NCBI GenBank assembly: GCA_045545495.1
Contig: JAZQBC010000058.1
Location: 17,246-81,245 of the forward strand
Length of the DNA: 64,000 nt
DNA from: Anaerovoracaceae bacterium
GTDB lineage: Bacteria > Bacillota > Clostridia > Peptostreptococcales > Anaerovoracaceae
Reading direction: 5' to 3'
The notes under the pieces were generated by a model. The model saw only the letters and a program-made list of their open reading frames with translations, ran no database searches and had not been told where the DNA came from. Below are positions 32,745 to 61,722 of this stretch, piece after piece (the first letter of the stretch is position 1; the number at the start of each line of letters is the position of its first letter). A program made the translations under genes and the position numbers.

Positions 32745-33371
32745 TTAGCAAATAGCTTCGATCTCCGCGAAGAGTTTGTCAGCGAGAGGAACGAGCTCAT
32801 CTACGTAAGCCTGGCCCTTCTTCTGATAACTCTCAGCGAGCTCTTTGTCTTTCATGCTTCCGATGTTGATCTTGACGTTGAGCCAAGCACCGAGGATAGC
32901 TGTACGGAGCTCGAGAACTGCTACGCCGAGGTCGCTGGCGGAGTTGACGTTGAACTTGCCCTGCATGCTCTCAACGAGGTGAAGAGCTTCGCTGCTGTAC
33001 TCAAGCATCTTGAGAGGGGACTCAACGCAAGCTACGAGACCATTCTGGATGGCTGCGGATCTTGCTGCCTTTTCCTCTTCTGTTTCCTTTGGCATACCAA
33101 ACGCATCGCCGATAACGTTGAAAGCGTCTGTGTCGAGGTCGACCTGAGCGATCAGCTTTTCTTTGAGAGCCGATGCTTTGTCGCGTGTCTCTTTTGCGAA
33201 TTCCTCGTAGTCAGCATACTTTTTTCTGCCGATCGTGAGGGTGCAAACCATGGCTGCGAGTGCGGAACCGAGAGCGCCTGCGAGAGAAGCTGCTGATCCG
33301 CCACCAGGAGCCGGTGCGTCTGACTCAAGTACGTCTGTGAAATGAGTCACTGTCATATCTACTAATTTCAT
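32745..33371 (-). CDS. formimidoyltetrahydrofolate cyclodeaminase / cyclohydrolase-family protein
   Basis: 'APAPGGGSAASLAGALGSAL', typical of the FtcD C-terminal domain family. Confidence 0.85.
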   Translation of the reverse strand: MKLVDMTVTHFTDVLESDAPAPGGGSAASLAGALGSALAAMVCTLTIGRKKYADYEEFAKETRDKASALKEKLIAQVDLDTDAFNVIGDAFGMPKETEEEKAARSAAIQNGLVACVESPLKMLEYSSEALHLVESMQGKFNVNSASDLGVAVLELRTAILGAWLNVKINIGSMKDKELAESYQKKGQAYVDELVPLADKLFAEIEAIC

Positions 33372-33562: not shown

Positions 33563-34477
33563 CTACATCATGTCGATCAGGTGATACTCGAGGATCTGCT
33601 CGTGGCAGTTGAAGTTCTCGACCTTGAGGTAGTACTCAGCGCAGTCGATCATAGCCTTAGCAGGTGTGAGTCCAACGATCTCTGTTCCGATGATGTTAAC
33701 GCCGTAGCCAGCAGCGAGAGCTCTTACCATCTCATATGTGTAGTAGAGAGGTGTGCCTTCGTAGTTGACCATGTTCATGGAAACCTGAGCGATTCCTCTG
33801 TCCTCGAGGAAGATGCCGATTCCCTTGCAGTATTTGAATCCGCCGGAGGATCCTCTGATTGCCTTAGCGATCTTGTTAGCGATCTCTACGTTGTCTGTAT
33901 CGAGGTTGATGTTGAAAGCGACCAGTGGCATACGAGCTCCGATAGCTGTGATACCTGCTGTAGGGTGGATCTTTCTTTCACCATAGTCTGGAGCCCACTC
34001 TTCCTGGAGCAGCTTCTCAGGCATACCCTCGAACTGACCCTTACGGCACTTAGCGAGGTTCTTTCTCTCAGGTCTTGTTGCGGAATCCTCATAGAGGAAG
34101 GAAGGGATCTGAAGCTCGTTCCAGATTCTCTCAGCAACTCTCTTGGAGAGGTCGATGCACTCTTCGAGTGTAACGTCTTTTGTCTGAGGAACGAATGGGA
34201 TAACGTCTGTAGCTCCCATACGTGGGTGCTGTCCCTGATGCTTATTCATGTCGATAAGCTCAGAAGCTTTCTTGCAGAGCTGGAAAGCGACCTCTTCGAT
34301 ACCCTCAGGGCTACCGATGAGTGTGAATACGCAGCGGTTGTGGCTTCCGTCGGACTGCACGTCGAAAAGTGTGCATCCAGGAGCGTTCTTTGCTACCTCT
34401 ACCAGCTGTTCGAAAACTGCTGGATCCTGTTCCTTGCTTGTGCTGAAATTAGGAATACATTCGATAAGTTTTGACAT
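33563..34477 (-). CDS. glutamate formimidoyltransferase
   Basis: 'MSKLIECIPNFSTSK' N-terminus typical of the FtcD N-terminal domain, 304 aa. Confidence 0.9.
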   Translation of the reverse strand: MSKLIECIPNFSTSKEQDPAVFEQLVEVAKNAPGCTLFDVQSDGSHNRCVFTLIGSPEGIEEVAFQLCKKASELIDMNKHQGQHPRMGATDVIPFVPQTKDVTLEECIDLSKRVAERIWNELQIPSFLYEDSATRPERKNLAKCRKGQFEGMPEKLLQEEWAPDYGERKIHPTAGITAIGARMPLVAFNINLDTDNVEIANKIAKAIRGSSGGFKYCKGIGIFLEDRGIAQVSMNMVNYEGTPLYYTYEMVRALAAGYGVNIIGTEIVGLTPAKAMIDCAEYYLKVENFNCHEQILEYHLIDMM

Positions 34478-38036: not shown

Positions 38037-40043
38037 ATGGCTGATTATGAAAAAGCAATGACAATCAAGCTGGATTATGAGCTTCCAGAGTATCCTGAAA
38101 TGGATCCTCAGTACAGAAGAGCTCCTAGAAGAGAAGCACATCTTACAGAGGCTGACAAAGCTCTTGCTATCAAGAACGCTCTGAGATATATCCATCCTGA
38201 TCATCATGAGCAGATGGCGAAGGAATTCGCCCAGGAGCTCGAAGAGCATGGACGTATTTACGGATACCGTTTCCGTCCTGAAGGCAAGCTCTATGGTAAG
38301 CCAATCGACGAGTATAAGGGAGCATGCATCGAGGGTAAAGCTATCCAGGTAATGATAGACAACAACCTCGACTTCGATATCGCTCTTTATCCATATGAGC
38401 TCGTAACATACGGCGAAACAGGACAGGTTTGCCAGAACTGGATGCAGTACAGACTCATCAAGAAATACCTTGAGGTACTCACACAGGATCAGACACTGGT
38501 AGTTATGTCGGGACATCCTCTCGGACTTTTCCATTCACATAGTCTGGCACCGAGAGTAATCATCAGTAACGGCCTCATGATCGGTACATTCGATGATCTC
38601 CATAACTTCAATAGAGCTGCTGCTCTGGGCGTAGCTAACTACGGACAGATGACAGCCGGCGGCTGGATGTACATCGGACCTCAGGGTATCGTTCACGGTA
38701 CATTCAACACACTCCTCAACGCAGGAAGACTCAAACTGGGAATCCCTCAGGACGGCAACCTCGCCGGTAAGATCTTCGTATCGGCAGGACTCGGCGGCAT
38801 GAGCGGTGCTCAGGGTAAAGCTGCTGAGATCGCAGGAGCTGCTTCCATCATCGCTGAGGTAGACGACTCCCGTATCGAGACACGTTACACACAGGGCTGG
38901 GTAACACACAGATCAGGTGACCTCGAAGAGGCTACAAAGATGCTTCTTGAGCATCAGAAAGAGGGCAAGGCCTGCGCTATCGCTTATCACGGCAACATCG
39001 TAGACCTTCTCGAGTATCTGTATGATCACGACGTACACGTAGATCTCATGAGTGACCAGACATCCTGCCACGTTCCTTACGAAGGCGGATACTGCCCACA
39101 GGGACTCACCTTCGAAGAGCGTACAGACATGCTCGACAAGGATCCTGAAGGATTCGCTAAGCTCGTCGACAAGACTCTGCAGCATCACTATGAGATGATC
39201 TGCAAGTTCAGCGAAAGAGGAACATACTTCTTCGACTATGGTAACAGCTTCCTCAAGGCTGTTTATGACACAGGCGTTAAGAGCATCTGCAAGAACGGCG
39301 AGAACGATCTTGACGGATTCATCTTCCCATCCTATGTTGAAGATATCCTCGGACCATTCCTCTTCGACTATGGTTATGGACCATTCAGATGGTGCTGCCT
39401 GTCGAGAAACCCAGAAGATCTTGACAAGACTGACGCTGCTGCTGCTGAGTACATCCTTGCTCACAACAGACGTTATCAGGACTACGACAACTACGTATGG
39501 GTACGTGATGCCAAGAAGAACAAACTCGTCGTTGGTACACAGTGCCGTATCCTCTATCAGGATGCTATCGGCCGTATGAACATCGCTCTGAAGTTCAACG
39601 AGATGGTTAGAAACGGAGAGATCGGTCCTGTTATCCTTGGTCGTGACCACCACGATACAGGCGGAACAGACGCTCCATTCAGAGAAACATCCAACATCAA
39701 GGACGGTTCCAACATCATGGCTGAGATGTCCGCACAGTGCTACGCAGGTAACGCTGCAAGAGGCATGAGCTACATCGCACTCCATAACGGCGGTGGTACA
39801 GGTATCGGTAATTCGCAGAACGGCGGATTCGGTATGGTACTCGATGGCTCCGAGAGAGTTGATAACATCCTCAAGATGGCTATGCCATGGGATACAATGG
39901 TCGGAGTTGCTCGTCGTAACTGGGCTCGCAATGAGCACGCTATGGAAGTTTGCGCTGAGTACAACGAGATGATGGCAGGTGCTGACCACATCACAATGCC
40001 TTACGTCGCTGACGATGCTGTCGTAGAGGCTGCACTCAAATAA
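38037..40043 (+). CDS. hutU: urocanate hydratase
   Basis: 668 aa with 'GGWMYIGPQGIVHGT' and 'GRDHHDTGGTD'. Confidence 0.95.
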   Translation: MADYEKAMTIKLDYELPEYPEMDPQYRRAPRREAHLTEADKALAIKNALRYIHPDHHEQMAKEFAQELEEHGRIYGYRFRPEGKLYGKPIDEYKGACIEGKAIQVMIDNNLDFDIALYPYELVTYGETGQVCQNWMQYRLIKKYLEVLTQDQTLVVMSGHPLGLFHSHSLAPRVIISNGLMIGTFDDLHNFNRAAALGVANYGQMTAGGWMYIGPQGIVHGTFNTLLNAGRLKLGIPQDGNLAGKIFVSAGLGGMSGAQGKAAEIAGAASIIAEVDDSRIETRYTQGWVTHRSGDLEEATKMLLEHQKEGKACAIAYHGNIVDLLEYLYDHDVHVDLMSDQTSCHVPYEGGYCPQGLTFEERTDMLDKDPEGFAKLVDKTLQHHYEMICKFSERGTYFFDYGNSFLKAVYDTGVKSICKNGENDLDGFIFPSYVEDILGPFLFDYGYGPFRWCCLSRNPEDLDKTDAAAAEYILAHNRRYQDYDNYVWVRDAKKNKLVVGTQCRILYQDAIGRMNIALKFNEMVRNGEIGPVILGRDHHDTGGTDAPFRETSNIKDGSNIMAEMSAQCYAGNAARGMSYIALHNGGGTGIGNSQNGGFGMVLDGSERVDNILKMAMPWDTMVGVARRNWARNEHAMEVCAEYNEMMAGADHITMPYVADDAVVEAALK

Positions 40044-40132
40044 TTAACTAAACAGATCCTCGGGTCCTCCTTCCGGAATGCTTTCCGGAGGGAGGGCAGC
40101 GAGGGGTCTTTATGTTTGTAGAGGAAATATCT

Positions 40133-41362
40133 ATGAAACTACTTATCAAAAACATCGGCATGCTCGCTACAGCAGTGGGCACATCCGCCAGATGCGGCAA
40201 AGACCAGGGCGAGATCATCAAGGTGAACAACGCTTGGATCGAGGTAGAAGACGATAAGATCAAAGCCTGTGGTGAGGGCGCTGCCCCTGCCGGCGATTTC
40301 GATGAAGTCATCGACGCTGAGGGAAGGCTCGTCACTCCTGGACTGGTCGACGCTCATACCCATCTCGTATTCGGCGGATGGAGACAAAATGAGCTCGGAC
40401 TCAAGCTTCACGGAGCCAGCTATCTTGACATACTCGCTATGGGTGGCGGGATCCACTCCACAGTCAAATCTACAAGAGAAGCTACAGAGGACGAACTTTA
40501 TGCCAAGGCCGCTAAGGCACTCGATGAGATGATCTCCATCGGAGTTACTACAGTTGAGGCCAAGAGCGGATACGGACTTGATCTTGAGAATGAGTTCAAA
40601 CAGCTTCGCGCTATGAAGAGACTGGGCGAGGATCACGTCATAGATCTCGTTCCTACATTCCTCGGAGCGCACGCTGTTCCAGAAGAATATAAGGATAATA
40701 GAGAAGAGTATATAAGACTGCTTACAGAAGAGATGATCCCTAAGGTCGCTGAGGAAGGCCTCGCAGAGTTCTGCGATGTCTTCTGCGAAAAGGGAGTTTA
40801 CACAGCAGAGGAATCCGAAAGGATCCTTAAGGCTGGTCAGGCTCACGGCCTCAAGTCCAAGATCCACGCTGATGAGATCGAGAACATGGGCGGCACAGAA
40901 CTTTGCGCAAGCCTCAAGGCTGTGTCTGCTGAACATCTCATCGTATGCAAAGAGTCGGGCATCAAGGCTATGGCTGAGGGCGGCACTGTAGCGTGTACGC
41001 TTCCTGCCACAAGCTTTTACCTTGGAGCTGTTTACGCTCCTGCCCGCGAGATGATCGAGGCCGGAGTTCCGGTCGCAGTCGGTTCCGACTTCAACCCGGG
41101 ATCATGCCCATCGCTCAATCTCCAGTTCTGTATGAATCTGGCATGTCTTAAATATAAGCTGACACCTGAAGAGATGCTGACAGCAGTAACGCTCAACGCG
41201 GCAGCTGCTGTATGCCGCGCGGATAAGGTCGGAAGCATAGAGGAAGGCAAGCAGGCTGACATCGTTATCTGGGATGCCCCTGATCTTGACTACCTCGGCT
41301 ACAGAATGGGATCCAATCTCGCCGCGACAGTCATCAAGAAGGGTAAAGTCGTTATTAGTTAA
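40133..41362 (+). CDS. hutI: imidazolonepropionase
   Basis: 'PGLVDAHTHLVFGG' and 'KIHADE' amidohydrolase motifs. Start at 'MKLLIKNIG'. Confidence 0.95.
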   Translation: MKLLIKNIGMLATAVGTSARCGKDQGEIIKVNNAWIEVEDDKIKACGEGAAPAGDFDEVIDAEGRLVTPGLVDAHTHLVFGGWRQNELGLKLHGASYLDILAMGGGIHSTVKSTREATEDELYAKAAKALDEMISIGVTTVEAKSGYGLDLENEFKQLRAMKRLGEDHVIDLVPTFLGAHAVPEEYKDNREEYIRLLTEEMIPKVAEEGLAEFCDVFCEKGVYTAEESERILKAGQAHGLKSKIHADEIENMGGTELCASLKAVSAEHLIVCKESGIKAMAEGGTVACTLPATSFYLGAVYAPAREMIEAGVPVAVGSDFNPGSCPSLNLQFCMNLACLKYKLTPEEMLTAVTLNAAAAVCRADKVGSIEEGKQADIVIWDAPDLDYLGYRMGSNLAATVIKKGKVVIS

Positions 41363-41402: not shown

Positions 41403-43028
41403 ATGAAGTATAATCCATCACTTATCAAGGAAATTACTCTTGACGGTAAGAGCCTGGTATTTGAAGAGTTTATCGCAGCTGCACGCTTTGGTGCTCATAT
41501 CAACATCGATCCTGAAGCGATCGAGAGAATGAAAGAGTCCAGAGCTCTCGCAGAGAAGATCCAGGCAGAAGGAAGAGCTGCTTATGGTATCACAACAGGA
41601 TTCGGTGAGTTCCAGAACACAGCCGTAGCTCCAGAGATGTCCAACCAGCTCTCGACAAACCTGATCCTCAGCCACTGCACAGCAACAGGCGAGCCATATA
41701 AAGAAGAAGTAGCCAGAGGTATCATGATCCTCCGCTGCAACAACCTCCTCGTTGGTATCTCCGGTGTAAGACCTCTCCTCGTAGAGATCATGGTAGAGAT
41801 GCTCAACAAGGGCGTTACTCCAGTGATCCCTCAGAAGGGTTCCCTCGGTTCATCCGGAGACCTCGCTCCACTCGCTCACATGACTCTGCCTATCCTCGGA
41901 CTCGGCGAAGCTACATACAAGGGCGAAGTTCTTCCTGGTAAAGAGGCTATGCACAGAGCAGGTATCCAGACTGTTGATACACTCGTATGCAAGGAAGGCC
42001 TTGGCATGACAAACGGTACATGCGCTATGACATCCTGCGGAGCACTCGCTCTTTATGATGCTATCTGCGCAGCTGAGATGGCTGACGTTATCGCTTCCAT
42101 GTCCATGGAAGGACTTACATGCCAGCGCAACGCGTTTGACCCACGTGTCCACACATGCAGAGGACATGAAGGCCAGATCAAGGTTGCTGAGAACCTCAAG
42201 ATGCTCACAGACGATTCTCCACTGATCGACAAGGCTCAGGGCGACAGAGTACAGGACGCTTACGCTATCAGATGTACTCCACAGATCCTTGGTGCTGTAA
42301 GAGACTCGCTCCAGTTCGTAATGGACAAGGTAGACATCGAGCTCAACGCTGTTACAGATAACCCGCTGCTCTTCATCGAGGACGAAGCAGTTATCTCGGG
42401 TGGTAACTTCCACGGCGAGCCAATGGCTCTTCCATTCGACCTCCTCGGTATCGCTGCTGCTGAGATCGCAGACCTCTCCGAGAGACGTCTTGAGAGAATG
42501 GTAAACCCAGCACTCTCCAACGGACTTACTCCATTCCTCGTAACAGAGGCTGGCCTTAACTCCGGATTCATGATCGTACAGTACGCTGCCGCTTCCATGG
42601 TATCCGAGTCCAAGATCTACGCTCATCCGGCTTCGGTAGACTCGATTCCATCTTCCGCTAACCAGGAAGACATCGTATCGATGGGTACAACAGCTGCCCG
42701 TACAGCTCGCATGATCGTTGAGAACACACTCGACGTACTCGCTCTCGAGCTCCTGACAGCTTGCCAGGCTATCGACATCAGAAGAAGAGCAGGCACTCAC
42801 GGCGAAGAGATCAGTGATTTCCACCAGAAGATCTACGACAAGGTTCGTGAAGAGGTAGACTTCTATGAGATCGACAGAGAGATCTGGCCTGACATTCGCG
42901 CTATGGAGAAATTCATCCGCAGAAAAGACCTCCTCGACCTGATCGACGAGTATAAGCCTGAACTCCTCGAGAACAACGCTTGGGGCAGATTCAGAGAAGA
43001 CATGAGATACACACCTCAGGTCAAGTAA
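41403..43028 (+). CDS. hutH: histidine ammonia-lyase
   Basis: 'YGITTGFG', 'GSLGSSGDLAPLAH' (MIO position; Ser-Ser-Gly here), 'MTNGT', 'VQDAYAIRC', 'NQEDIVSMG'. Confidence 0.9.
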   Translation: MKYNPSLIKEITLDGKSLVFEEFIAAARFGAHINIDPEAIERMKESRALAEKIQAEGRAAYGITTGFGEFQNTAVAPEMSNQLSTNLILSHCTATGEPYKEEVARGIMILRCNNLLVGISGVRPLLVEIMVEMLNKGVTPVIPQKGSLGSSGDLAPLAHMTLPILGLGEATYKGEVLPGKEAMHRAGIQTVDTLVCKEGLGMTNGTCAMTSCGALALYDAICAAEMADVIASMSMEGLTCQRNAFDPRVHTCRGHEGQIKVAENLKMLTDDSPLIDKAQGDRVQDAYAIRCTPQILGAVRDSLQFVMDKVDIELNAVTDNPLLFIEDEAVISGGNFHGEPMALPFDLLGIAAAEIADLSERRLERMVNPALSNGLTPFLVTEAGLNSGFMIVQYAAASMVSESKIYAHPASVDSIPSSANQEDIVSMGTTAARTARMIVENTLDVLALELLTACQAIDIRRRAGTHGEEISDFHQKIYDKVREEVDFYEIDREIWPDIRAMEKFIRRKDLLDLIDEYKPELLENNAWGRFREDMRYTPQVK

Positions 43029-51763: not shown

Positions 51764-52780
51764 ATGGATATAAACATTTACGAGGCTCCTCTAAGTGAGG
51801 AGCGCAATACTGAATACAAGGCATTTCTGGCGTCTGCAGGGCTCAGAGATGAAGAGGATGCCGATTTCATCGCATGGATGAAAGATGACAGCGGCAGACT
51901 CGTCGCTTGCGGGGCGCTTGCGGGACATACCATCAAGCAGCTCGCGGTCGATCCTTCGATCGAGGGCACAGGCGCGATGGCTCAGATCATGACTGCCATC
52001 GTCAGAGAGGCATACGACCGCGGCAATACCAGGCTGTTCCTCTGCACCAAGCCAAAGAATTACAATATGATGTCGTCGCTTGGCTTCAATAAACTGATCG
52101 CCATCGATGACGCGGTGCTCCTGGAGAACCGCAGGAACGGACTTGAGAAATTCCTGGCCAAGACAAGGAAGGATGCTGAAGAGCACCGCGCGGATATCGC
52201 GGATATCACTTGCGGGGCTGTAGTGTGCAACTGCGATCCGTTTACTTTGGGACACAGGCATCTTATCGAATACGCGTCGAAGCACTGCGATTATCTCTAT
52301 GTATTCGCGGTCGCTGAGGCGGGTTCAAGATTCACTCCGGAGGACCGTCTTGAGATGATAAAACAGGGGACTGCGGATCTTGAGAACTGTCATGTCTACA
52401 GCAGCGAGCTGTACCTCGTGTCGAGAGCGACTTTCCCTGCGTACTTCATACGCGACGAGGAGCACGCCGATGAGGTAAGATCTGATCTGGACATAACGCT
52501 GTTTGCGGAGAGGATAGCGCCGGCTCTTAATATCACCAAGCGCTTTGTGGGGCAGGAACCTTTTTCACCTGTTACGAACGCGTACAATACAAGGATGAAG
52601 AAATTGCTTCCTGAGTACGGGATCGAGCTGGTTGAGATACCGAGATTCGCGGCGGAAGGCGATGAACTGGCTGTCAGCGCGAGCCGCGTAAGAAAGCTAT
52701 TCGAGGAAGGCGATATGGAGGCTGTGAGGGCGCTTGTGCCGGAGACAACTTACGCAATTATCGAAAAGTATCAGAAATAA
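51764..52780 (+). CDS. citC: [citrate (pro-3S)-lyase] ligase
   Basis: 338 aa: an N-terminal GNAT-like part plus a cytidylyltransferase-like part ('CNCDPFTLGHRHLIE'). Confidence 0.9.
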   Translation: MDINIYEAPLSEERNTEYKAFLASAGLRDEEDADFIAWMKDDSGRLVACGALAGHTIKQLAVDPSIEGTGAMAQIMTAIVREAYDRGNTRLFLCTKPKNYNMMSSLGFNKLIAIDDAVLLENRRNGLEKFLAKTRKDAEEHRADIADITCGAVVCNCDPFTLGHRHLIEYASKHCDYLYVFAVAEAGSRFTPEDRLEMIKQGTADLENCHVYSSELYLVSRATFPAYFIRDEEHADEVRSDLDITLFAERIAPALNITKRFVGQEPFSPVTNAYNTRMKKLLPEYGIELVEIPRFAAEGDELAVSASRVRKLFEEGDMEAVRALVPETTYAIIEKYQK

Positions 52781-52867
52781 TCGTTGCTGATCAGCTTAGA
52801 TGTCAAACTTGCAAAAATATTAAGAAAATAACAAAAATTATAAAATAATATCAATTAGTTTCAATTA

Positions 52868-54205
52868 ATGAGAAAAGTAATCGTTGAGGATATGCTCGCC
52901 GCACGGGACAGGCGGGTGGATATACAAAACAGTATGCTTGAGGAAGGCGGCGATGATTGCTGCCTTGCTTGTCTTACGCTTAATATTGCGGGAGAGATCA
53001 AGCGAACACCAATGACCAGAATGCTCTTTGACAGAGGCGTCTCGGAATTCGAGCAGGCCGGCTTCGAGGTGATCGATCATATGATGATCGACGAATTCAC
53101 GGGAAGCGAAGCTTTCTGGCTAGTCAAAGAGGACGGAGCAGGGGTCAAGAAGTACCTGGAAGAGGTTGAGGCTTCTTTCCCCGCGGCCAGGCTATTTGAT
53201 TTTGATGTGCTGACACCGGACGGGGTCAAGTTGTCGAGGGCCAAAAGCCGCAAATGTCTCATTTGCGACAAGCCTGCGGCGGAGTGCGCCAGGAGCCGCG
53301 CCCACGGGCTCGATGCTATAAAGGCGGCGACTCAAGACCTGCTAAGGGACTTCTGCGCGGATACGCTGGCAGAAGAGGCGCACGACGCGCTTTTGGCCGA
53401 GGTCTATTCGACTCCTAAACCGGGACTTGTAGATATGGCAAATAACGGCGCCCATAATGACATGGATATCGAGCTGTTCGAGAAAAGCGCCGATGCGCTG
53501 AAGCCGTATTTTTATGACGCGGCGACGCTTGGAATGCGAGGCTGCTCTATGGCCGAGCTTCGGGAGCGCGGGCTGGCCGCTGAGCAAGAGATGTATGCGG
53601 CCACCGGCGGCGTCAACACACATAAAGGAATGATCTATTCGATGGGTCTCCTGCTCGCGGGCATGGGAATGGCCCTCGCAGGGGACAGTGGAGCCATCGA
53701 AGAACAAGATGTCTCAGAAGAAAAAGACTCGCTCAGGCAGGAGGCCATAAACAACGCCGCCGGGCTGGCGAGCGAAGACGCGGAGAGGGTGCTCGCCAGA
53801 GCCCGTTCCAATCCTGACACCAACGGCGCTGCTGTCCTTAGAGACTACGGAGCGCTCGGCGCGACAGGTCACGCCACCGCCGGCTTCCCGGGCGCCGTTT
53901 TCACGACCGCAAGACTGGAGTATTATATAAAAGAGGAAAAACTCCCGGGAGGAGAGGCCGGTGCTCTGGCGCTTTGTGATAGCATGGCAAGCCTTGAGGA
54001 CACCAACCTTCTGCACCGGGGCGGTGCAGAGGGTCTTGCATTTACCAAGGAGAAGGCATCCGCTATAAGCGGACTTCCGGTCTCCGACCGGATAGTCGCT
54101 CTCACCGAATTGGATAAAGAAATGATAGAGAAAAATCTTTCGCCGGGAGGCAGCGCGGATATGCTCGCGCTCGCTTTCCTGCTCGGAAGCTGGGACGAGA
54201 GGTAA
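52868..54205 (+). CDS. citXG: fused CitX (holo-ACP synthase) and CitG (triphosphoribosyl-dephospho-CoA synthase)
   Basis: The N-terminal ~170 aa is CitX-like. The C-terminal part is CitG-like ('STPKPGLVDMANNGAHNDM'). Confidence 0.85.
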   Translation: MRKVIVEDMLAARDRRVDIQNSMLEEGGDDCCLACLTLNIAGEIKRTPMTRMLFDRGVSEFEQAGFEVIDHMMIDEFTGSEAFWLVKEDGAGVKKYLEEVEASFPAARLFDFDVLTPDGVKLSRAKSRKCLICDKPAAECARSRAHGLDAIKAATQDLLRDFCADTLAEEAHDALLAEVYSTPKPGLVDMANNGAHNDMDIELFEKSADALKPYFYDAATLGMRGCSMAELRERGLAAEQEMYAATGGVNTHKGMIYSMGLLLAGMGMALAGDSGAIEEQDVSEEKDSLRQEAINNAAGLASEDAERVLARARSNPDTNGAAVLRDYGALGATGHATAGFPGAVFTTARLEYYIKEEKLPGGEAGALALCDSMASLEDTNLLHRGGAEGLAFTKEKASAISGLPVSDRIVALTELDKEMIEKNLSPGGSADMLALAFLLGSWDER

Positions 54206-54209
54206 TAGT

Positions 54210-55109
54210 ATGACATTACAGGAAATCAGGTATTTTTGTGTTACTGCTGAAGTTCTCCATTACACAAAGGCTGCTAATCTCCTATATATATCGCAGCCGA
54301 GCCTTAGTTACGCGCTCTCTAAGCTTGAGAAAGAACTCGGAATGCCTCTATTCGAGAAGCGAGGCAAGCAGGTCTCGCTCACTAAATACGGCGAGGCGTT
54401 CCTGCCTTATGCCAAGAGGGCACTGAGCGAACTGTCTGATGGCATCGACCGCATCAACTCACTTAACCGCCCGGAAGCCGGCATAGTCAGCCTTGGTTAC
54501 ATCAACAGCACAAGTTTCACGGTGCTGCCTGAGTTTGTAAACAAATTCTATGCTGATCAGGAAAGACAGCAGATCGCGTTCAGATTCCAGCAGGGCATGG
54601 CGGGTGAATTGATAGAGCAGCTTCTCAACGGTGACCTGGATCTACTCATCGCGGGCGTAACAGGAAGGCCGGATATCAAAGCAATAGACTATCTGCCAAT
54701 ATTCAGCCAGGATCTTTATCTTGTAGTGCCGGAAAAACACAAGCTCGCTTCGCGCACATCGGTCGATCTTTCTGATCTCGCGGGAGAGAATTTCATCTCC
54801 ATAAGGCACGAGTCGGTGATCTATCATCAGCTGGAATCACAGTTCAAAAAGGCCGACGTTACGCCGCATATGGTATATGAGGCCGACGAATACAGCTCTA
54901 TCGCCGCGTCTGTAGCTACCGGCGCGGGAGTCGCCATAATGCCTAGACTTCCTATGCTGAGCAGTTTCAATATCAGGCTGATACCTTTCATGGACACGTC
55001 CATGAAGCAGGAAGTCTGCATCATGAGAAGCAATACGCACGAGATGTCAGAGTCCATCAAGAGCGTGTGGAAATTCGCCGAAAGCCTCTCATCTTCAATG
55101 AACGGGTGA
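54210..55109 (+). CDS. LysR-family transcriptional regulator
   Basis: HTH 'FCVTAEVLHYTKAANLLYISQPSLSYALSKLEKELG' plus a substrate-binding domain. Confidence 0.9.
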   Translation: MTLQEIRYFCVTAEVLHYTKAANLLYISQPSLSYALSKLEKELGMPLFEKRGKQVSLTKYGEAFLPYAKRALSELSDGIDRINSLNRPEAGIVSLGYINSTSFTVLPEFVNKFYADQERQQIAFRFQQGMAGELIEQLLNGDLDLLIAGVTGRPDIKAIDYLPIFSQDLYLVVPEKHKLASRTSVDLSDLAGENFISIRHESVIYHQLESQFKKADVTPHMVYEADEYSSIAASVATGAGVAIMPRLPMLSSFNIRLIPFMDTSMKQEVCIMRSNTHEMSESIKSVWKFAESLSSSMNG

Positions 55110-55259
55110 CGGTGAATAGCCAAGTAATCTCAAACTCGATGAACGGCTAACGCTGTACGGCCAGGTAAAGATTGACAAATTCTTTGTCCTGACTATTGCT
55201 CGACTACTCAGCAGGAAAAAGAACCAAGTGGACAGTAATAATAACAGTTTTTTGATGTT

Positions 55260-55286
55260 CGGTAACAGCACTGTTACCGTTTTTTT
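55260..55286 (+). terminator. rho-independent terminator
   Basis: 'cggtaacag' and 'ctgttaccg' followed by 'ttttttt'. Confidence 0.7.
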
Positions 55287-55390
55287 CTTATTAATTCCGG
55301 AAAATCACCATGCCGGAAACTAGCCTTTAATGTGTAGTTTCTGTGTTGCACTTTTTGTAGAAAATGTGACATTATTTTGTTGTTTTTGTT

Positions 55391-55418
55391 TTGTTAAACA
55401 TATATTTCATGATAGAAT
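55391..55418 (+). promoter_or_regulatory. candidate sigma-A promoter with extended -10
   Basis: TTGTTA (55391-55396), 16-nt spacer ending in TG-n, then TAGAAT (55413-55418). Confidence 0.4.
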
Positions 55419-55460
55419 TGGTCGACCGCTAAAAGTGAATATTAGGGGGAGGTGGTCCGC

Positions 55461-56006
55461 ATGGATGTTTCGATCAAGGCGTTGCCTGTTAAGATGTCCA
55501 AGGACGAGGCACTGAAGATCGCTGCCGGGCATAAAAACCCTGTTGTCAAGGCTATGGCAAGGGGTAAAAAGATCAATCTCCGTATCATGTATCTTGAGAA
55601 TAGGTACAACATATACGAGATGACCTATCACGCTAGCCCGCTGGCGAAGCTTTTCAAAGGAGAGTCCATTGAAGAGCAAAAGCAGAAGATCCGCATCATA
55701 GTCGATACGACTACATGCTCAGCTTCTTACACTTCAGACCCGCTCTACTTCGAAGAGATCGAAGTGGGTGAGGACAGCTTGCAGGCTTCTTATTATGAGG
55801 ATCAAAGACTCGAGGACACAGGAGCGTTCCTTGCCAAGCGTATGACACGCCGGCGCATCGGCAAGCAGATCTCGATAGAGCTTCTGTCGAGTGAGGTCTT
55901 CTACAGACCGTATTACATCGCCATCTACGGAGAGATGATAGAAGGTACTAAAGCCAGATATCTTCCTATCGCCGCCGATGGCCATGAGGTCAATACCACT
56001 ATTTAA
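55461..56006 (+). CDS. hypothetical protein (no family recognised)
   Basis: 181 aa, RBS 'gggggagg' 8 nt before the ATG, soluble. Ends with 'FYRPYYIAIYGEMIEGTKARYLPIAADGHEV'. Confidence 0.6.
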   Translation: MDVSIKALPVKMSKDEALKIAAGHKNPVVKAMARGKKINLRIMYLENRYNIYEMTYHASPLAKLFKGESIEEQKQKIRIIVDTTTCSASYTSDPLYFEEIEVGEDSLQASYYEDQRLEDTGAFLAKRMTRRRIGKQISIELLSSEVFYRPYYIAIYGEMIEGTKARYLPIAADGHEVNTTI

Positions 56007-56089
56007 CATGTTGATAAAAAAGGGCGGGATTAAAGTTATTACACCAGTTACACGTTATTGCATCAGTCATTAGATAAAGGAGAGATTAT

Positions 56090-57817
56090 ATGTTAATGAC
56101 AGCAATTGACGACATTGTCGTCGTATTACTGATTGCCGGCATCTTCGGCATCGGCGCACACCTGTCCAAGAGCACTGACTCGGAGAGCTTCTTCAACGCT
56201 AACCACGCTCTTCCATGGTCACTCATGGTAGGTACACTGATGGCTTCGTGGTACAACGGAGCCGGAACGATGGGTACAGTCGGATATGTATGTACTATGG
56301 GATTTGCGGCCTTCTTCATTTGGTCGATCGGATCGCACGCGGTAAGATTCCCGCTTGCTCTCTGGATCGCTCCAAGGATCTCGGTCAAGGCTAAGGGTAC
56401 AATTCCTGAACTTCTGAGATCACATTACGGTAAGTTCGCGTCGATCCTCGGATCCATCGTACTCGTAATCACTTGTCTTTCCATCGCAGACGTAGCTGCT
56501 ATCGGTTATATCGGTGAGGCTGGCTGGAACATGAACAAGTTCGTTGCTGCTGCTATCGTAGTAGCTATCGCTATCGGACTTACATGTCTTTCCGGACTCA
56601 TGGGCGTTGCCATCACAGACATGATTTTCTTCGCGCTGATGATCATCTGCCTCTGCGCTGTATATCCTAAGATGTTTGCTGAAGCAGGCGGACTCACAGG
56701 ATTCCACGCAGCACTCGATGAAACAGCACCTCATATGATGACAGCACTCGGCGGTATCCCTGTTCCGCAGGCTATCGTACTCGTAGTTCTCTGTATCAAC
56801 CTGTATAAGGACCCTGCATTCTATCAGAGATTCGCAGCAGCTAAGACACCTCAGACAGGTAAGAGAGCTATGCTGACATGCTTCTCGATCTTCATGTCCT
56901 TCGACCTGGTAATGATGATGACAGGTATCATCATCGGCATGAAGTTCCCTGCAGAGATCGCAGCCGGAACAGTTCAGCCAGAGGTTGAGTACATCAGACT
57001 CGTACTGCAGAGCCTGCCAGTCGGACTCCGCGGATTCTTCATCGTAGGTCTTACAGGCGCTATCGTTTCGACACTCGACTCCTACTACCTCGTTGGTGGT
57101 GAGATCATCTCGAACGATATCATCTACATGCTCAGAGGAGACAAGAGACTGCCAGACAAGACAGCTATCATGGTCACACGTATTTCGGCAGTTATCTTCG
57201 GAATCATCGGACTTGCTACCGCTTTCCGTTTCGCTCGTGTATACGACGCGTTCCTCTTCCTTGCCAGTATCTCGATGACGCTGCTCTTCGTTCCTATGAT
57301 CGCAGCTCTTATGTATGACGGCAAGAAGACAAACGTTGCGGGACTCGCTTCCATGATCGTCGGAGCTGTTTCCTGGATCTGGTTCACAGTGAAGCCTATC
57401 GTTGTAGATACAGTTACAGGTCCTTACACGATCGACGCTGTACTTATCGGACTTCCACTTTCGTTCATCGCGTTCCTGATCGGTAACCGCTTCGGTACAG
57501 ACCTTACCGCTAAAGCTAAGGCAGATGCGCTTGCTAAGGGCATCCCACTGGCTGATCTTGGACTTGACGCTACTGAACTCACTGACGAGTACAAGAAGTC
57601 CATTAAGGTCGAGTGGATCGGATGGGACGGAGCTCTCATCCTGCTCTACATCGTACTTGCTTGCTTCTATGGATATGGTATCCTCCACAACGTTGACTGG
57701 ATCGTCGGCATCGCTGCTCCTGTCATCGCTATGGGTATCGTAATTGGCGTATTCGTCAAGTACCTGACAGAGGTATTCGGCGTAATGCGTGCCCATAAGG
57801 AAAAAGACGTAGCATAG
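56090..57817 (+). CDS. sodium:solute symporter (SSS) family transporter
   Basis: 575 aa, about 13-14 TM segments, SSS-like sequence. RBS 'aaaggagag'. Confidence 0.85.
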   Translation: MLMTAIDDIVVVLLIAGIFGIGAHLSKSTDSESFFNANHALPWSLMVGTLMASWYNGAGTMGTVGYVCTMGFAAFFIWSIGSHAVRFPLALWIAPRISVKAKGTIPELLRSHYGKFASILGSIVLVITCLSIADVAAIGYIGEAGWNMNKFVAAAIVVAIAIGLTCLSGLMGVAITDMIFFALMIICLCAVYPKMFAEAGGLTGFHAALDETAPHMMTALGGIPVPQAIVLVVLCINLYKDPAFYQRFAAAKTPQTGKRAMLTCFSIFMSFDLVMMMTGIIIGMKFPAEIAAGTVQPEVEYIRLVLQSLPVGLRGFFIVGLTGAIVSTLDSYYLVGGEIISNDIIYMLRGDKRLPDKTAIMVTRISAVIFGIIGLATAFRFARVYDAFLFLASISMTLLFVPMIAALMYDGKKTNVAGLASMIVGAVSWIWFTVKPIVVDTVTGPYTIDAVLIGLPLSFIAFLIGNRFGTDLTAKAKADALAKGIPLADLGLDATELTDEYKKSIKVEWIGWDGALILLYIVLACFYGYGILHNVDWIVGIAAPVIAMGIVIGVFVKYLTEVFGVMRAHKEKDVA

Positions 57818-57854
57818 CACCGAGCTTTGCCCGGTTCTAAACCGTTAAATTATG

Positions 57855-57888
57855 ACCGCCCGGTGTTATGCACCCCGGGCGGTTTTTT
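57855..57888 (+). terminator. rho-independent terminator
   Basis: 'accgcccgg' and 'ccgggcggt' followed by 'tttttt'. Confidence 0.85.
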
Positions 57889-57908
57889 GCAAAAAAGGGG
57901 AAAAGAGA

Positions 57909-59438
57909 ATGAGTAAGACCAACAAAAAAGTAGTTCTCGGCGAGCCGATGGACCTTAAGAAATTCATTGCGGTAGTCAGAGATCACGCTGAAGTTGAATT
58001 CTCGGAAGAATACTGTGCTCGTGTCAACAGGGCGCGTGCACTCGTCGATAAATGGGTAGACGAAGGGCGTGTCATGTACGGCATCACGACAGGCTTCGGA
58101 GCTCTGAGTGAGAAGTCGATCAGTCGAGAGGACACAGCGAAGCTCCAGGAAAACATTCTGCTTTCACACTCGGTATCCGTAGGCGAGCCGTTCACAGAGG
58201 AAGAGTGCCGCGCGGTAATGCTGATGGTACTCCAGAATCTGGGACAGGGATATAGCGGAGTCAGGCTCTGCGTGCTCGAACAGTATAGACAGTTCCTCAA
58301 TAGGGGACTCGTGCCTTGGGCTCCAAAGGAGGGCTCTGTAGGCTATCTGAGCCCTGAGGCTCATATGGCGCTGGTACTTCTCGGAAAGGGCAAAGCCTGG
58401 TATGAAGGCGAACTCATGCCCGGCGCTGAGGCCCTCAAAAAAGCAGGGCTTGAGCCGATGCAGCTCGCATCTAAGGAAGGCCTCGCACTCGTATCAGGCA
58501 CTACAACGACAACAGCTCTGGCAGCTCTCGCACTCTACGATATGATCAAGGCCGCTAAGTCCGCAGACATCATCGGCGCTATGTCGCTCGAGCTCTCGGG
58601 CGGTCAGATGAACGCCTTTGACGAAAGAGTATGCGCTGTAAGGCCTCACGCTCAGCAGATGAAAACAGCCGAAAATGTCAGAAATATACTGGCGGATTCA
58701 GATCTTATAAAGATGTATGCCGGAGTCCGCGTCCAGGATGCGCTGTCTCTTCGCTGCATACCTCAGCTTCACGGCGCTGCCAAGCACCTGTTTGAGGATG
58801 CTAAGATAACAATAGAAGTCGAGATGAATTCGTGCTGTGATAACCCGATCATTTGGCCGGAAGAGGGCAACGAGACTGTTATATCCGCATGCAACGCCGA
58901 TGCCGCGTACGTTGGAATGCAGATGGATGCCGCGTGCATAGGAGCGACCGGCATCGCCAAGATGTCTGAGAGGCGCAACAACCGCCTCATCGACGGATCG
59001 CTCTCCGATCTTCCTTGGTTCCTCATCAAGAACCCTGGATTATCATCGGGTCTTATGATCCCTCAGTACGCACAGGCAGGTCTTCTGAATGACATGCGCA
59101 TGCTCTGCACTCCTGCGACTATAGACAATACACCTACATGCGGCAACCAGGAAGACTACGTTTCGATGGGTTACAACTCAGCGAAGAAGTCCATTGCCGT
59201 TGCGGAGAAGCTCGAGTACATACTTGCGATCGAACTTCTCTCGGTATTTGAAGGACAGCAGTTCCGTGAACCGGAACTGAAGAGGTCGTCAGTGTCCCGC
59301 GATGTTCTCGATGAGATCGGAAAGAGCGTTCCTGTTCTCGAAGAGGATCAGTTCCTCTATCCGTTCATCGAATATCTGCGCGACATGATACATTCGGGCA
59401 GGCTTCTCGAGATCGCAAGAAAGCACGTAGATCTGTAG
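57909..59438 (+). CDS. aromatic-amino-acid-lyase (HAL/PAL) family protein lacking the MIO triad; candidate ergothionase-like lyase
   Basis: 'YGITTGFG', 'LLSHS' and 'NQEDYVSMG' are retained. 'GSVGYLSPEAH' replaces 'GSxGASGDLAPLAH', 'LVSGT' replaces 'NGT', and 'QDALSLRC' replaces 'QDAYSxRC'. Start at 'MSKTNKK' with RBS 'aaagggga'. Confidence 0.85.
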   Translation: MSKTNKKVVLGEPMDLKKFIAVVRDHAEVEFSEEYCARVNRARALVDKWVDEGRVMYGITTGFGALSEKSISREDTAKLQENILLSHSVSVGEPFTEEECRAVMLMVLQNLGQGYSGVRLCVLEQYRQFLNRGLVPWAPKEGSVGYLSPEAHMALVLLGKGKAWYEGELMPGAEALKKAGLEPMQLASKEGLALVSGTTTTTALAALALYDMIKAAKSADIIGAMSLELSGGQMNAFDERVCAVRPHAQQMKTAENVRNILADSDLIKMYAGVRVQDALSLRCIPQLHGAAKHLFEDAKITIEVEMNSCCDNPIIWPEEGNETVISACNADAAYVGMQMDAACIGATGIAKMSERRNNRLIDGSLSDLPWFLIKNPGLSSGLMIPQYAQAGLLNDMRMLCTPATIDNTPTCGNQEDYVSMGYNSAKKSIAVAEKLEYILAIELLSVFEGQQFREPELKRSSVSRDVLDEIGKSVPVLEEDQFLYPFIEYLRDMIHSGRLLEIARKHVDL

Positions 59439-59491
59439 ACTGCATAGGGTAGACGAATCGGAAATAGCCGATCGGTCATAAAAAATGTACG

Positions 59492-59521
59492 AAAAAAGGA
59501 GTTCGCGATGAACTCCTTTTT
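59492..59521. terminator. bidirectional rho-independent terminator
   Basis: 'aaaaaaggagttc-gcgat-gaactccttttt'. Confidence 0.85.
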
Positions 59522-59544
59522 GCATGCTCTGAATTCGCGTTCGT

Positions 59545-59690
59545 TCTGCAAGTAGACTCGCTAACGGCTCGTTGGCAACCGCTCTGCCATCGTCTTCTAC
59601 AAAGACTCGCCAATCGCGGGCCACCTGCGTAAATGAATTTCCATGACTCTGTCTTCGCCTTCGGCTCGCCAGTCGTCAGGACAATTCATC
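59545..59690. repeat. degenerate copies of the intergenic element family (copy D, inverted orientation) in the rpsI 3' UTR
   Basis: The minus strand 'ctgacgactggcgagccgaaggcgaagacag' matches copy A 'cttagcgattggcaagccgaaggcgccgacag' at 25/31. The motifs 'cgattggcgagtct' and 'cgttagcgagtct' recur nearby. Confidence 0.6.
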
Positions 59691-60092
59691 TTAACGCTTG
59701 CTGAACTGGCTGGCTCTTCTAGCTTTCTTGAGACCTGGTTTCTTTCTTTCTTTCATACGTGGGTCTCTTGTAAGGAAGCCTGCTGCCTTGAGTGCAGGTC
59801 TGTACTCCTCAGCGTCAACTTCGCAAAGAGCTCTTGCGATGCCGTGTCTGAGAGCTCCGGCCTGGCCTGTGAAACCGCCGCCGTTAACAGTAGCGATAAC
59901 ATCGAAGCTGCCGAGAGTTCCTGTCAGCTCGAGAGGTCTCTTGACTTCGTTCTTAACGATGTCCTTCTCACCAAAGTAAGTGTCGAGGTCTCTCTTGTTG
60001 ATGATGATGTTGCCTGCGCCAGGGAGAAGTCTCACTCTGGCTACGGATGACTTTCTTCTGCCTGTTGCCTGATACATAGTCTTTGCTGCCAT
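59691..60092 (-). CDS. rpsI: 30S ribosomal protein S9
   Basis: '[19 protein letters not shown]' with a C-terminal '[12 protein letters not shown]'. Confidence 0.97.
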
Positions 60093-60109
60093 TGCTTATT
60101 CCCCCTTTC

Positions 60110-60538
60110 TTAGAATTCGTATGCTTCCGGCTTCTGAGCCTTATGTGGATGCTCAGGGCCTGCGTATACTTTGAGCTTCTTGAACATCTGACGTCCGAGT
60201 TTGCCCTTTGGCATCATGCCGCGAACTGCGTGATAGATGATCTCCTCAGGCTTCTTGGCTCTCATTTCGCCAAGGCTTGTCTCTTTGAGGCCGCCCGGAT
60301 AACCGGAATGTCTCTTGTAGATCTTGTCAGATTCTTTCTTACCGCTTACAGCTACCTTCTCAGCGTTGACTACGATTACATAGTCACCTGTGTCGATATG
60401 AGGTGTGTAGATCGGTTTTTTCTTTCCTCTCAGGATCATAGCTGCTTCAACTGCGAGCTTACCGAGAGTCTTGCCTTCTGCATCGATTACAAACCACTTG
60501 CGATCGATGTCCGCCGGCTTAGCGATGTAAGACTTCAT
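60110..60538 (-). CDS. rplM: 50S ribosomal protein L13
   Basis: 142 aa, '[16 protein letters not shown]'. Canonical rplM-rpsI pair. Confidence 0.97.
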
Positions 60539-60746
60539 TTTGTGTCCTTTCTGCCTACTCAGATCTGCCTATACACTTCGCGTCCTCTTGGGTACAACTG
60601 TTTTAATGCAGAGCTTCTTCGGCCCGCCTACTCAGTATCGCTTTCGCGATGCCGTTTCGGCATTACTAGTAATAAATTATTAGTGCTTCGGCTACCGGCC
60701 ATGTGGCCTGCCTAGGCTGAAGTGCGCATTCCGCGCACGCTTAGTT

Positions 60747-60775
60747 AGTATAATTGCTCAAAGCCTTGAAGTCAA
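60747..60775 (-). promoter_or_regulatory. sigma-A promoter for rplM-rpsI
   Basis: The minus strand reads TTGACT (60775-60770), 17-nt spacer, TATACT (60752-60747). This gives a ~200-nt leader before rplM. Confidence 0.55.
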
Positions 60776-60801
60776 GCGGAATACTTGATAAAATCCTCCT
60801 C

Positions 60802-61722
60802 ATGAGCAACAAATTGAAGGGCAGTATAATACTCTTGATCACTGCAATCGTGTGGGGGTCAGGATTCATAGCACAGAAGCTTGGCGGTGAAGCAATGCCG
60901 CCAATAACATTCAATGCGACGCGTCAGCTGATGGCAGCGGTAGCGCTGCTTCCGCTGGCGGTTTATAGCATTCGCTCACATGGTTATTTTTCAAAGGAGA
61001 AAAACACTTCTTCCCAGATCAGCGGCAAGGCTAAAAAAATGGTCGCCGCGGGCATCGTGTGCGGCGGCTTACTTTTGTTCGCCACGGGTCTGCAGCAGCT
61101 CGGTCTTCAGACTGTGTCTGCCGGAAAGGTAGGATTTATCTCCGCGACATATGTTGTGCTCGTGCCAATAATCGGGATATTCCTCGGAAAGAAGGCCGGG
61201 AGGAAAGCGGTTATGTGCGCTATTCTGGCTCTGTTTGGATTCGCGGTCATGAGCCTCAGCCTCGACGGCAGCATGACAAAAGGTGACTGGCTGACTCTCA
61301 TCAGCGCTGTTTTTTGTGCGGTTCAGATCTTAGCTGTCGACCACTTCGTGGATAATGACAATTTTATGCTTCTTGTCGTGCTGCAAGCGGCGGGCTGCGG
61401 CATTTTCGGGCTCCTGATCGGAGTACCGGTAGAGTCTCCGTCTTTGGCATCATTCCGTAACGCTCTTCCTATACTGCTGTACACTACATTCGTGCCTACA
61501 TGCATAGGATATCCCGGCCAGATAATAGGACAAAAGTATACTGATTCGAACACCGCTGCACTGATTCTGAGCCTCGAAGCTGTATTCGCCGCCATTTTCG
61601 GCGCAATCTTCCTTAAGGAGGTAATGAGCGCGAGGGAGGTCCTCGGAAGCGTGATCATATTCGCTGCCGTGATCATAGGGCAGTTTGAGAAGAAACCAGC
61701 AAAGGGTGTGAGCGAAGACTGA
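60802..61722 (+). CDS. DMT (EamA-like) family transporter
   Basis: 10-TM protein with 'LLITAIVWGSGFIAQK'. The start is uncertain because there is no clear RBS. Confidence 0.8.
   Translation: MSNKLKGSIILLITAIVWGSGFIAQKLGGEAMPPITFNATRQLMAAVALLPLAVYSIRSHGYFSKEKNTSSQISGKAKKMVAAGIVCGGLLLFATGLQQLGLQTVSAGKVGFISATYVVLVPIIGIFLGKKAGRKAVMCAILALFGFAVMSLSLDGSMTKGDWLTLISAVFCAVQILAVDHFVDNDNFMLLVVLQAAGCGIFGLLIGVPVESPSLASFRNALPILLYTTFVPTCIGYPGQIIGQKYTDSNTAALILSLEAVFAAIFGAIFLKEVMSAREVLGSVIIFAAVIIGQFEKKPAKGVSED

Follow-up and report, generated by a model that had tools for sequence, protein, structure and literature searches.

A lyase of the histidine ammonia-lyase fold with a shortened MIO loop, predicted to release trimethylamine from histidine betaine

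In all characterised aromatic amino-acid ammonia-lyases, the 4-methylideneimidazol-5-one (MIO) group is essential for the elimination of ammonia. The fold of histidine ammonia-lyase (HAL) is already known to include trimethylammonia-lyases without MIO, among them one histidine-betaine lyase described in 2025, and according to the literature an N-trimethyl group is required by every lyase of this fold that is deficient in MIO. The ergothionases (Treponema denticola 6S7J, Burkholderia sp. HME13 and Shewanella oneidensis SO_3057) have the HAL fold, lack MIO, keep the Tyr base and eliminate trimethylamine, but those characterised do not convert histidine betaine (L-hercynine). Their Lys384 generates and binds the thiolate and is essential for ergothionase activity (bioRxiv 10.64898/2026.04.22.720169; a second preprint, bioRxiv 10.1101/2025.08.13.670108, concurs), and its equivalent is Asn in the histidine-betaine trimethylammonia-lyase of Shewanella woodyi, Swoo_3913, and Gln in the N(pi)-methyl-histidine-betaine lyase of S. 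oneidensis, SO_3299 (same two preprints). Swoo_3913 converts hercynine to urocanate and trimethylamine and has no HAL activity (bioRxiv 10.1101/2025.08.13.670108), and SO_3299 accepts only N(pi)-methyl histidine betaine and rejects both ergothioneine and hercynine (bioRxiv 10.64898/2026.04.22.720169). Here we describe a 509-residue, MIO-less lyase of the HAL fold, encoded at 57909..59438 on the forward strand of a 64,000-nucleotide stretch (the window) of contig JAZQBC010000058.1 from an Anaerovoracaceae bacterium. We place it in clade A of a lineage that we call 'GSVGY', after its loop, and predict that it is an L-hercynine trimethylamine-lyase.

The protein matches PF00221 with 548 bits across residues 15–470 (Pfam) and is therefore a member of the HAL/PAL/TAL superfamily. 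Its AlphaFold2 model (pLDDT 85, pTM 0.89) superimposes on HAL structures with template-modelling (TM) scores of 0.90–0.91 (0.91 for Pseudomonas putida HAL) and on the T. denticola ergothionase 6s7j with a score of 0.87. Modelling, which the original prediction had proposed as a check, thus confirmed the HAL fold, and that is the level at which the model was used; the geometry of the MIO pocket is argued from alignment. A longer reading frame starting at 57852 was rejected, since it crosses a hairpin and the orthologues begin at the equivalent of 57909.

The former MIO loop of the lyase reads GSVGYLSPEAH (residues 142–152; 58332..58364, forward strand), and residues 140–152 are KEGSVGYLSPEAH. 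Compared with the HAL loop GSVGASGDLAPLAH, it has three residues fewer and contains no Ala/Ser-Ser-Gly, so that the Ala-Ser-Gly-Asp segment is replaced by a single invariant residue, Tyr146. In HMMER alignments to solved HALs, Tyr146 lies opposite the MIO residue and a three-residue deletion is needed; MAFFT arrives at the same deletion when P. putida HAL is aligned with the lyase. Loop lengths are 11 residues in the window lyase, 14 in HAL and 13 in both T. denticola ergothionase and Swoo_3913, the last taken from a copy made by optical character recognition. Misalignment was considered as the source of the missing triad and rejected, since the two methods agree on the deletion. A pseudogene or an assembly artefact is likewise ruled out, because the loop, as GSVGYL[SAC]PEAH, recurs with the same active-site substitutions in 79 orthologues; these are 55–95% identical to the window lyase, come from many genera and were collected from 80 related loci, with one genome scanned per species. 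The claim that the window holds a second HAL-family copy without the MIO triad and with a loop three residues shorter was therefore upheld: every motif quoted for it is present, and the alignment revealed no intact X-Ser-Gly triad that had been misread.

The remainder of the active site is part conserved and part remodelled. With the columns numbered on P. putida HAL in the MAFFT alignment, positions 53, 83, 142–145, 195, 277, 280, 283, 329, 330, 382, 385, 386, 412 and 414 read Y H Y--- S Q L R A D M Q Y N E in the lyase and Y H [A/S]SGD N Q Y R F H M Q Y N E in true HALs. The lyase thus keeps the base Tyr53, the imidazole ligands His83 and Glu414 and the carboxylate ligands Gln277 and Arg283, and its imidazole side is HAL-like throughout (His83, Met382, Gln385, Tyr386, Glu414). 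An alignment of 29 family members shows no variation in the catalytic Tyr, His, Gln, Arg, Asn and Glu. Four positions differ from P. putida HAL, namely Asn195Ser, Tyr280Leu, Phe329Ala and His330Asp. The first corresponds to Ser196 of the lyase (58494..58496, forward strand), within 'LVSGT' at residues 194–198, and is also Ser in T. denticola ergothionase; the second corresponds to Leu279 (58743..58745, forward strand), within 'VQDALSLRC' at residues 275–283, and is also Leu in T. denticola ergothionase and in Swoo_3913. The motifs 'YGITTGFG', 'LSHS' and 'NQEDYVSMG' are present as well. To judge from the alignment, the loop deletion together with Asn195Ser, Tyr280Leu and Phe329Ala would clear the space that MIO fills in HAL.

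By sequence and structure, the closest known proteins are the MIO-dependent HutH enzymes. The nearest solved structures are those from Thermoplasma (7tqr, 313 bits), Trypanosoma cruzi (6v6h, 300 bits) and P. putida HAL (1B8F, 284 bits), and T. denticola ergothionase 6s7j follows at rank 15 of the PDB search with 168 bits. The window encodes a canonical HutH itself (41403..43028, forward strand), which served as the comparator: it has the Ser-Ser-Gly triad and, as had been stated, the full catalytic set 'QKGSLGSSGDLAPLAH', 'MTNGT' and 'VQDAYAIRC', and it scores 594 bits against the hutH equivalog model TIGR01225 (cut-off 539). The lyase is 38% identical to this protein, shares its imidazole and carboxylate ligands and probably yields the same product, urocanate. 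Unlike HutH, it has neither the Ala/Ser-Ser-Gly triad nor MIO, all four residues listed above are changed, it falls below the equivalog cut-off (514.0 against 539.15), and its family is partnered by a betaine transporter. Because MIO is absent, the lyase cannot deaminate histidine. The view that this gene is not a redundant hutH holds. The cofactor cannot form, and the amine side of the pocket has been remodelled as in known trimethylammonia-lyases.

The gene neighbourhoods of the family provide a second line of evidence. All counts are per locus (loci are coded L001, L002 and so on). A betaine/carnitine/choline transporter (BCCT) gene adjoins the lyase gene in 51 of the 80 loci, mostly directly upstream and usually with a sigma-54 activator, and the gap between transporter and lyase has a median of 19 bp. 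In nine related loci and in the window, a symporter of the sodium:solute symporter (SSS) family takes its place, never alongside a BCCT (p=4e-5). A soluble open reading frame (ORF) of 181–187 residues accompanies the SSS symporter in 8 of the 9 loci (p=3e-9), including L057, L060, L043, L045, L064, L001 and L002, and its product may serve as an accessory subunit or be related to the substrate. In 16 of the 80 loci the lyase gene shares a same-strand cluster with hutU, hutI, hutG and formiminotransferase-cyclodeaminase (FTCD) genes, which couples the lyase to catabolism and not to a urocanate reductase; 13 of the 16 loci with hutU or hutI hold no MIO-containing HAL inside the locus. The gene order is sigma-54 activator, SSS, 181-residue ORF, lyase, regulator, hutU, hutI, FTCD_N and FTCD_C in Sporomusa, hutU, hutI, hutG, gdh, lyase and BCCT in Acinetobacter, and BCCT, lyase and hutU in L039. 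The neighbouring hutU genes pass the NCBIfam urocanase equivalog (432–1019 bits, cut-off 375) and fail the models for thiourocanate and S-methyl-thiourocanate hydratase (288–719 bits, cut-offs 880 and 930), and the hutI and hutG genes clear their own equivalog cut-offs. The family occurs in Oscillospiraceae, Lachnospiraceae, Acidaminococcus, Clostridium, Sporomusa and Acinetobacter.

A further group of neighbours is tied to ergothionases. An ergothionase-type paralogue stands beside the target family in Clostridium symbiosum and also in 8 of the 80 loci, and homologues of the Lys384 type share a locus with it in C. symbiosum, Acidaminococcus and Peptoanaerobacter. A three-subunit molybdenum (Mo) enzyme of the xanthine-dehydrogenase family (2Fe-2S, FAD and MoCo subunits; L005 9884-13424, L006 11775-15315, L063 3087-6195, and also L066, L073, L044, L043 and L045) tracks this paralogue, being present in 7 of the 8 loci that have it and in 2 of the 72 that do not (p=9e-8). 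It scores under every NCBIfam equivalog cut-off, with the alpha subunit of 4-hydroxybenzoyl-CoA reductase as its third-best match; it is a candidate enzyme for the reductive desulfurisation of thiourocanate that gut anaerobes are reported to carry out. In some loci (L009, L043) two or three different MIO-less lyases are strung together; in L009 (802-5508), two clade-A copies come after an ergothionase-type variant whose Lys384 position is Asp.

We consider it very likely that the window protein is an MIO-independent lyase that eliminates trimethylamine, because Asn195Ser and Tyr280Leu are shared with trimethylammonia-lyases, because MIO-deficient lyases need an N-trimethyl group and because the usual partner of the family is a BCCT. 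That its substrate is L-hercynine, converted to trans-urocanate and trimethylamine, we hold to be somewhat better than an even proposition; we favour it because on its imidazole side the pocket is the same as in HAL and the neighbours are canonical Hut enzymes. The suggestion that the enzyme is a betaine-type lyase for hercynine or another N-alkylated imidazole amino acid is thus the best reading, in view of the two substitutions, the imidazole ligands and the BCCT partner.

In the proposed mechanism, the substrate would enter through the upstream SSS symporter (a BCCT in most relatives), and the cytoplasmic lyase would act on an N-alpha-trimethylated imidazole amino acid, from which trimethylamine would depart as a good leaving group. 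By homology, Tyr57 (HAL Tyr53) would abstract the beta-proton, Gln276, Arg282 and Asn312 would hold the carboxylate, and His87 and Glu415 would bind the unsubstituted imidazole in the manner of HAL. The N(CH3)3+ group may fit where the loop deletion, Asn195Ser, Tyr280Leu and Phe329Ala make room, and the invariant Tyr146 could provide a cation-pi contact. The urocanate would then be degraded by enzymes encoded in the window. These are urocanate hydratase, the predicted consumer of the lyase product (hutU, 38037..40043, forward strand; assigned through a BLAST family whose members pass the TIGR01228 equivalog cut-off), imidazolonepropionase (hutI, 40112..41362, forward strand; one member of its family passes the TIGR01224 cut-off), glutamate formiminotransferase (FTCD_N family, 33563..34477, reverse strand) and formiminotetrahydrofolate cyclodeaminase (FTCD_C family, 32745..33371, reverse strand), the last two from families of which a representative was confirmed by Pfam. 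Together they make up a full route from urocanate to glutamate; a formate-tetrahydrofolate ligase is also encoded in the window.

Among described enzymes, Swoo_3913 catalyses the very reaction that we predict. Both are MIO-less proteins of the HAL fold that lack Lys at the 384 position, have Leu at the Tyr280 position and retain the Tyr base and the His/Glu imidazole ligands. They differ in several respects. Swoo_3913 is 26% identical to P. putida HAL, keeps Phe329 (Ala in the window lyase) and has the 13-residue loop GSVGLSDILLASH (again from the optically read copy) in place of 11 residues; it is periplasmic and coupled to a urocanate-reducing flavocytochrome for respiration, whereas the window lyase lacks a signal peptide and is tied to an uptake transporter and to catabolism through the Hut pathway. 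Loop length, periplasmic location and low identity to HAL would indicate a different lineage for Swoo_3913, as far as its machine-read sequence can be trusted. SO_3299, which we compared by its description only, is likewise a MIO-less, Lys-less trimethylammonia-lyase for a sulfur-free histidine betaine; unlike the lyase, it is periplasmic, flavocytochrome-coupled and has Gln at the Lys384 position.

Several points weigh against the assignment of hercynine. Phe329Ala and His330Asp have no counterpart in known trimethylammonia-lyases, and SO_3299 shows that the absence of Lys is no guarantee of specificity for hercynine. The hut genes of the window lie 15 kb from the lyase gene and include a normal hutH, so that local linkage is weak. 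Sister clades within the lineage appear to show that specificity has diversified: clade B paralogues (L034 11552-13072, L035 3297-4808, L004 11834-13372) have the same three-residue deletion and keep Asn195 together with Leu280, and clade C paralogues (L039 6483-8135, L067 5322-6887, L068 13364-14929) have the deletion and no MIO and keep Asn195, Tyr280 and Phe329 ('VQDAYVLR'), which hints at a chemistry not yet described. In L045, L043 and L005/L006 the lyase is part of a gene string that also contains the Mo enzyme, elsewhere a companion of the ergothionase-type gene, and this leaves room for a thio-substrate. In L043 (8381-11512), an ergothionase-type variant with Asn at the Lys384 position, as in the histidine-betaine lyase of S. 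woodyi, directly precedes the clade-A gene; this paralogue could itself be the hercynine enzyme there. The literature that we searched contained no enzymatic data for any member of the GSVGY lineage; Zhou 2025 and Feng 2025, on gut ergothioneine catabolism, were outside its coverage. A search for a Firmicutes hercynine lyase, a thiourocanate desulfhydrase and S-methyl-thiourocanate enzymes returned only the two Shewanella preprints and reviews.

The first alternative is a trimethylamine-lyase for another betaine, such as N(pi)- or N(tau)-methylated hercynine, S-methyl-ergothioneine, selenoneine or a further imidazole or aromatic amino-acid betaine. We regard this as unlikely, although it is the alternative that survives best. 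Specificity in this class of enzymes is narrow and hard to predict, as the Lys-less SO_3299 with its single N(pi)-methylated substrate illustrates, and Phe329Ala and His330Asp would make the pocket larger or change it in other ways. Clades A, B and C attest to a radiation of the lineage, and in some loci (L009, L043) three kinds of MIO-less lyase occur together. Among the 150 best representatives at the 50% identity level, about 30 lack MIO, and they vary in their pocket residues, including positions 195, 280 and 329. Set against this, His83, Glu414 and Met382 are invariant and HAL-like, a poor fit for N-methylated or C2-substituted rings and for side chains other than imidazole, and the canonical hutU, hutI and formiminoglutamate enzymes point to plain urocanate as the product.

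The second alternative, which we judge less probable again, is an ergothionase of a second type that converts ergothioneine to thiourocanate and trimethylamine and recognises the thione without Lys384. The absence of MIO and the changes Asn195Ser and Tyr280Leu are indeed those of ergothionases, L005/L006, L043, L045 and L066 hold the lyase in one string with the Mo enzyme and/or ergothionase-type genes, and C. symbiosum, which carries an orthologue, reportedly has ergothionase activity. The comparison with T. denticola ergothionase, however, separates the two proteins (its sequence was taken from PDB 6s7j, which was found by querying with a machine-read copy from a preprint supplement). They are 27.5% identical, and the ergothionase loop, SSIGEGDITTLSH, has a deletion of one residue against three in the lyase. 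The essential Lys384 lies within 'TIQK', 28 residues before the conserved Glu; at the same distance from the Glu of NQED/TIED the lyase has no Lys but Tyr387 ('MIPQY'; 59067..59069, forward strand), the residue usual in ordinary HALs. At position 382, Met is found in the lyase and in HAL, against Gly in the T. denticola enzyme and Gly, Ser or Ala in ergothionase-type proteins generally, which have Lys at 386. In a midpoint-rooted neighbour-joining tree, the ergothionase-type proteins form a clade apart, and the true HALs and the MIO-less GSVGY proteins are sister groups. The placement in a family tree that had been proposed as a check thus sets the lyase beside the HALs and apart from the ergothionases.

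The C. symbiosum locus (L081, 6264-17150 of a metagenome contig) bears directly on this alternative, since it contains two betaine-lyase modules side by side. One consists of a sigma-54 activator, a BCCT and the clade-A lyase P0045, which is 69% identical to the window lyase. The other consists of a LysR regulator, an ergothionase-type lyase, its own BCCT and a protein of the ornithine-cyclodeaminase/mu-crystallin family. This second PF00221 gene lies 3 kb from P0045, is 44% identical to T. denticola ergothionase and keeps 'TIQK', which makes it the obvious candidate, on sequence grounds, for the reported ergothionase activity and would account for that activity apart from the clade-A enzyme. 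A separate ergothionase-type gene with its own BCCT in the same locus argues for a different substrate for the clade-A lyase; two ergothionases with two separately regulated transporters per locus would be redundant, and an organism that uses both ergothioneine and hercynine needs two lyases, because hercynine is not a substrate of the characterised ergothionases. Identity between the two C. symbiosum BCCTs is 50%, and the BCCTs beside ergothionase-type genes cluster mostly apart from the main group beside the lyase family, a pattern that fits substrates which are related but not the same. A homology search with the C. symbiosum ergothionase-type protein returned a broad family in anaerobes and no named Blautia producta entry. 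Furthermore, the Mo enzyme follows the ergothionase-type gene and not the lyase family, in which it is found in 9 of the 80 loci, and the hydratases adjacent to the lyase are urocanases and not thiourocanate hydratases. From the Lys384 column, the separate clade and the coexisting Lys384-type paralogues, we conclude that the lyase is not a member of the known ergothionase family. The ergothionase option of the original prediction is therefore set aside in favour of a histidine-betaine lyase, on account of the replacement of Lys384 by Tyr, the low identity, the lineage of its own, the paralogues alongside and the urocanate-pathway neighbours.

Finally, a degenerate or redundant HAL paralogue, either an inactive pseudoenzyme or one that slowly deaminates histidine without MIO, is very improbable: true HALs are its closest relatives in sequence and structure and one NCBIfam 'histidine ammonia-lyase' cut-off is passed, but the family is strongly conserved over Firmicutes, Proteobacteria and others with invariant catalytic residues, has a dedicated transporter and regulator, and would have to dispense with a group that is essential in the characterised ammonia-lyases; Swoo_3913, likewise MIO-less, lacks HAL activity.

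We suggest, tentatively and with less than even confidence, that 'GSVGY' is a second lineage of the HAL fold that lost MIO independently of the ergothionases and radiated in anaerobes to several specificities, and that it represents an unrecognised, widespread route by which gut and rumen bacteria turn dietary betaines derived from histidine into trimethylamine. The independent loss is proposed because the loop deletions differ (three residues against one) and because the lineage is placed beside true HALs in the tree. What is new relative to the described enzymes is a lineage apart, not described in the literature searched, that combines a loop deletion of its own with a cytoplasmic location, a catabolic context linked to a transporter and an imidazole pocket like that of HAL. 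Trimethylamine from gut microbes is the precursor of trimethylamine N-oxide, and its listed sources are choline, carnitine, betaine and ergothioneine lyases. The window gene belongs to a large family whose members usually carry the annotation HAL or HAL/PAL/TAL, and its product very probably splits trimethylamine from a histidine betaine; if confirmed, this would add a source of trimethylamine and correct a systematic misannotation. It would also provide a rule for reading sequences, in which ASG marks an ammonia-lyase, a one-residue deletion with Lys384 an ergothionase and a three-residue deletion with Tyr the GSVGY group, and a second, probably independent, case of a cofactor that was discarded once the substrate brought its own good leaving group. 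A recent survey found ergothionase-type enzymes to be rare in gut bacteria, with BLAST yielding only "HAL-like" proteins.

The expectation that standard pipelines would label the gene histidine ammonia-lyase was borne out by a small margin. The lyase narrowly passes the NCBIfam model PRK09367 'histidine ammonia-lyase' (527.4 against a cut-off of 524) but fails TIGR01225, and the NCBI name of the orthologues is 'HAL/PAL/TAL family ammonia-lyase'. NCBIfam (release 20) contains models for thiourocanate and S-methyl-thiourocanate hydratases and none for ergothionase or betaine lyases of the HAL fold.

In the window itself, the lyase gene looks like the last of a three-gene unit. It is preceded by a 575-residue SSS-family symporter (56090..57817, forward strand; PF00474), the presumed route of substrate uptake in place of the BCCT of most relatives, and by the 184-residue ORF that travels with it (55452..56006, forward strand; no Pfam or NCBIfam match). 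A promoter-like site, TTGTTA-16-TAGAAT with an extended-10 TG (55391..55418, forward strand), is a candidate start of the unit by its match to the consensus, although such sites are no commoner here than in shuffled sequence; a terminator-like hairpin at 55260-55279 lies just before it. Between symporter and lyase there is a GC-rich hairpin with a 10-bp stem and a U-run (57854..57890, forward strand), recognised by reading and folding. Only about 18 nucleotides, with a GGGG ribosome-binding site and no promoter-like site, separate the U-run from the ATG of the lyase. The gene had been described as monocistronic and flanked by strong terminators. Both hairpins do exist, but the short distance, the lack of a promoter-like site and the median gap of 19 bp in relatives argue against a monocistronic gene, and the upstream hairpin is probably an internal attenuator or a partial terminator. 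Its position and stem sequence have an equivalent in L002 (9949-9978), a 95%-identical locus of a rumen metagenome-assembled genome, and such conservation inside an operon suggests regulated read-through or transcript processing. A scan with a terminator consensus detected neither of the hairpins that flank the lyase, both of which were confirmed by reading and folding, and an Rfam scan of 52000-61000 found no riboswitch or leader.

Upstream of the unit lies a LysR-family gene (54210..55109, forward strand; PF00126 and PF03466), which may encode its regulator; the arrangement is the same in L002, and a sigma-54 activator replaces this gene in most relatives. Two citrate-lyase accessory genes (51764-54205), a citC-like ligase and a fused citX-citG, adjoin the LysR gene on its upstream side and show no evident functional link to the lyase; such genes are likewise upstream in L002, and similar genes stand beside the lyase in L028, L031 and L040. 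Downstream, rpsI and rplM (59691-60538, reverse strand; identified from their translations alone) converge on the lyase gene, and the strong hairpin with U-run at 59487..59521 (z = -4.1 for a 92-nucleotide stretch) serves both sides as a two-way terminator.

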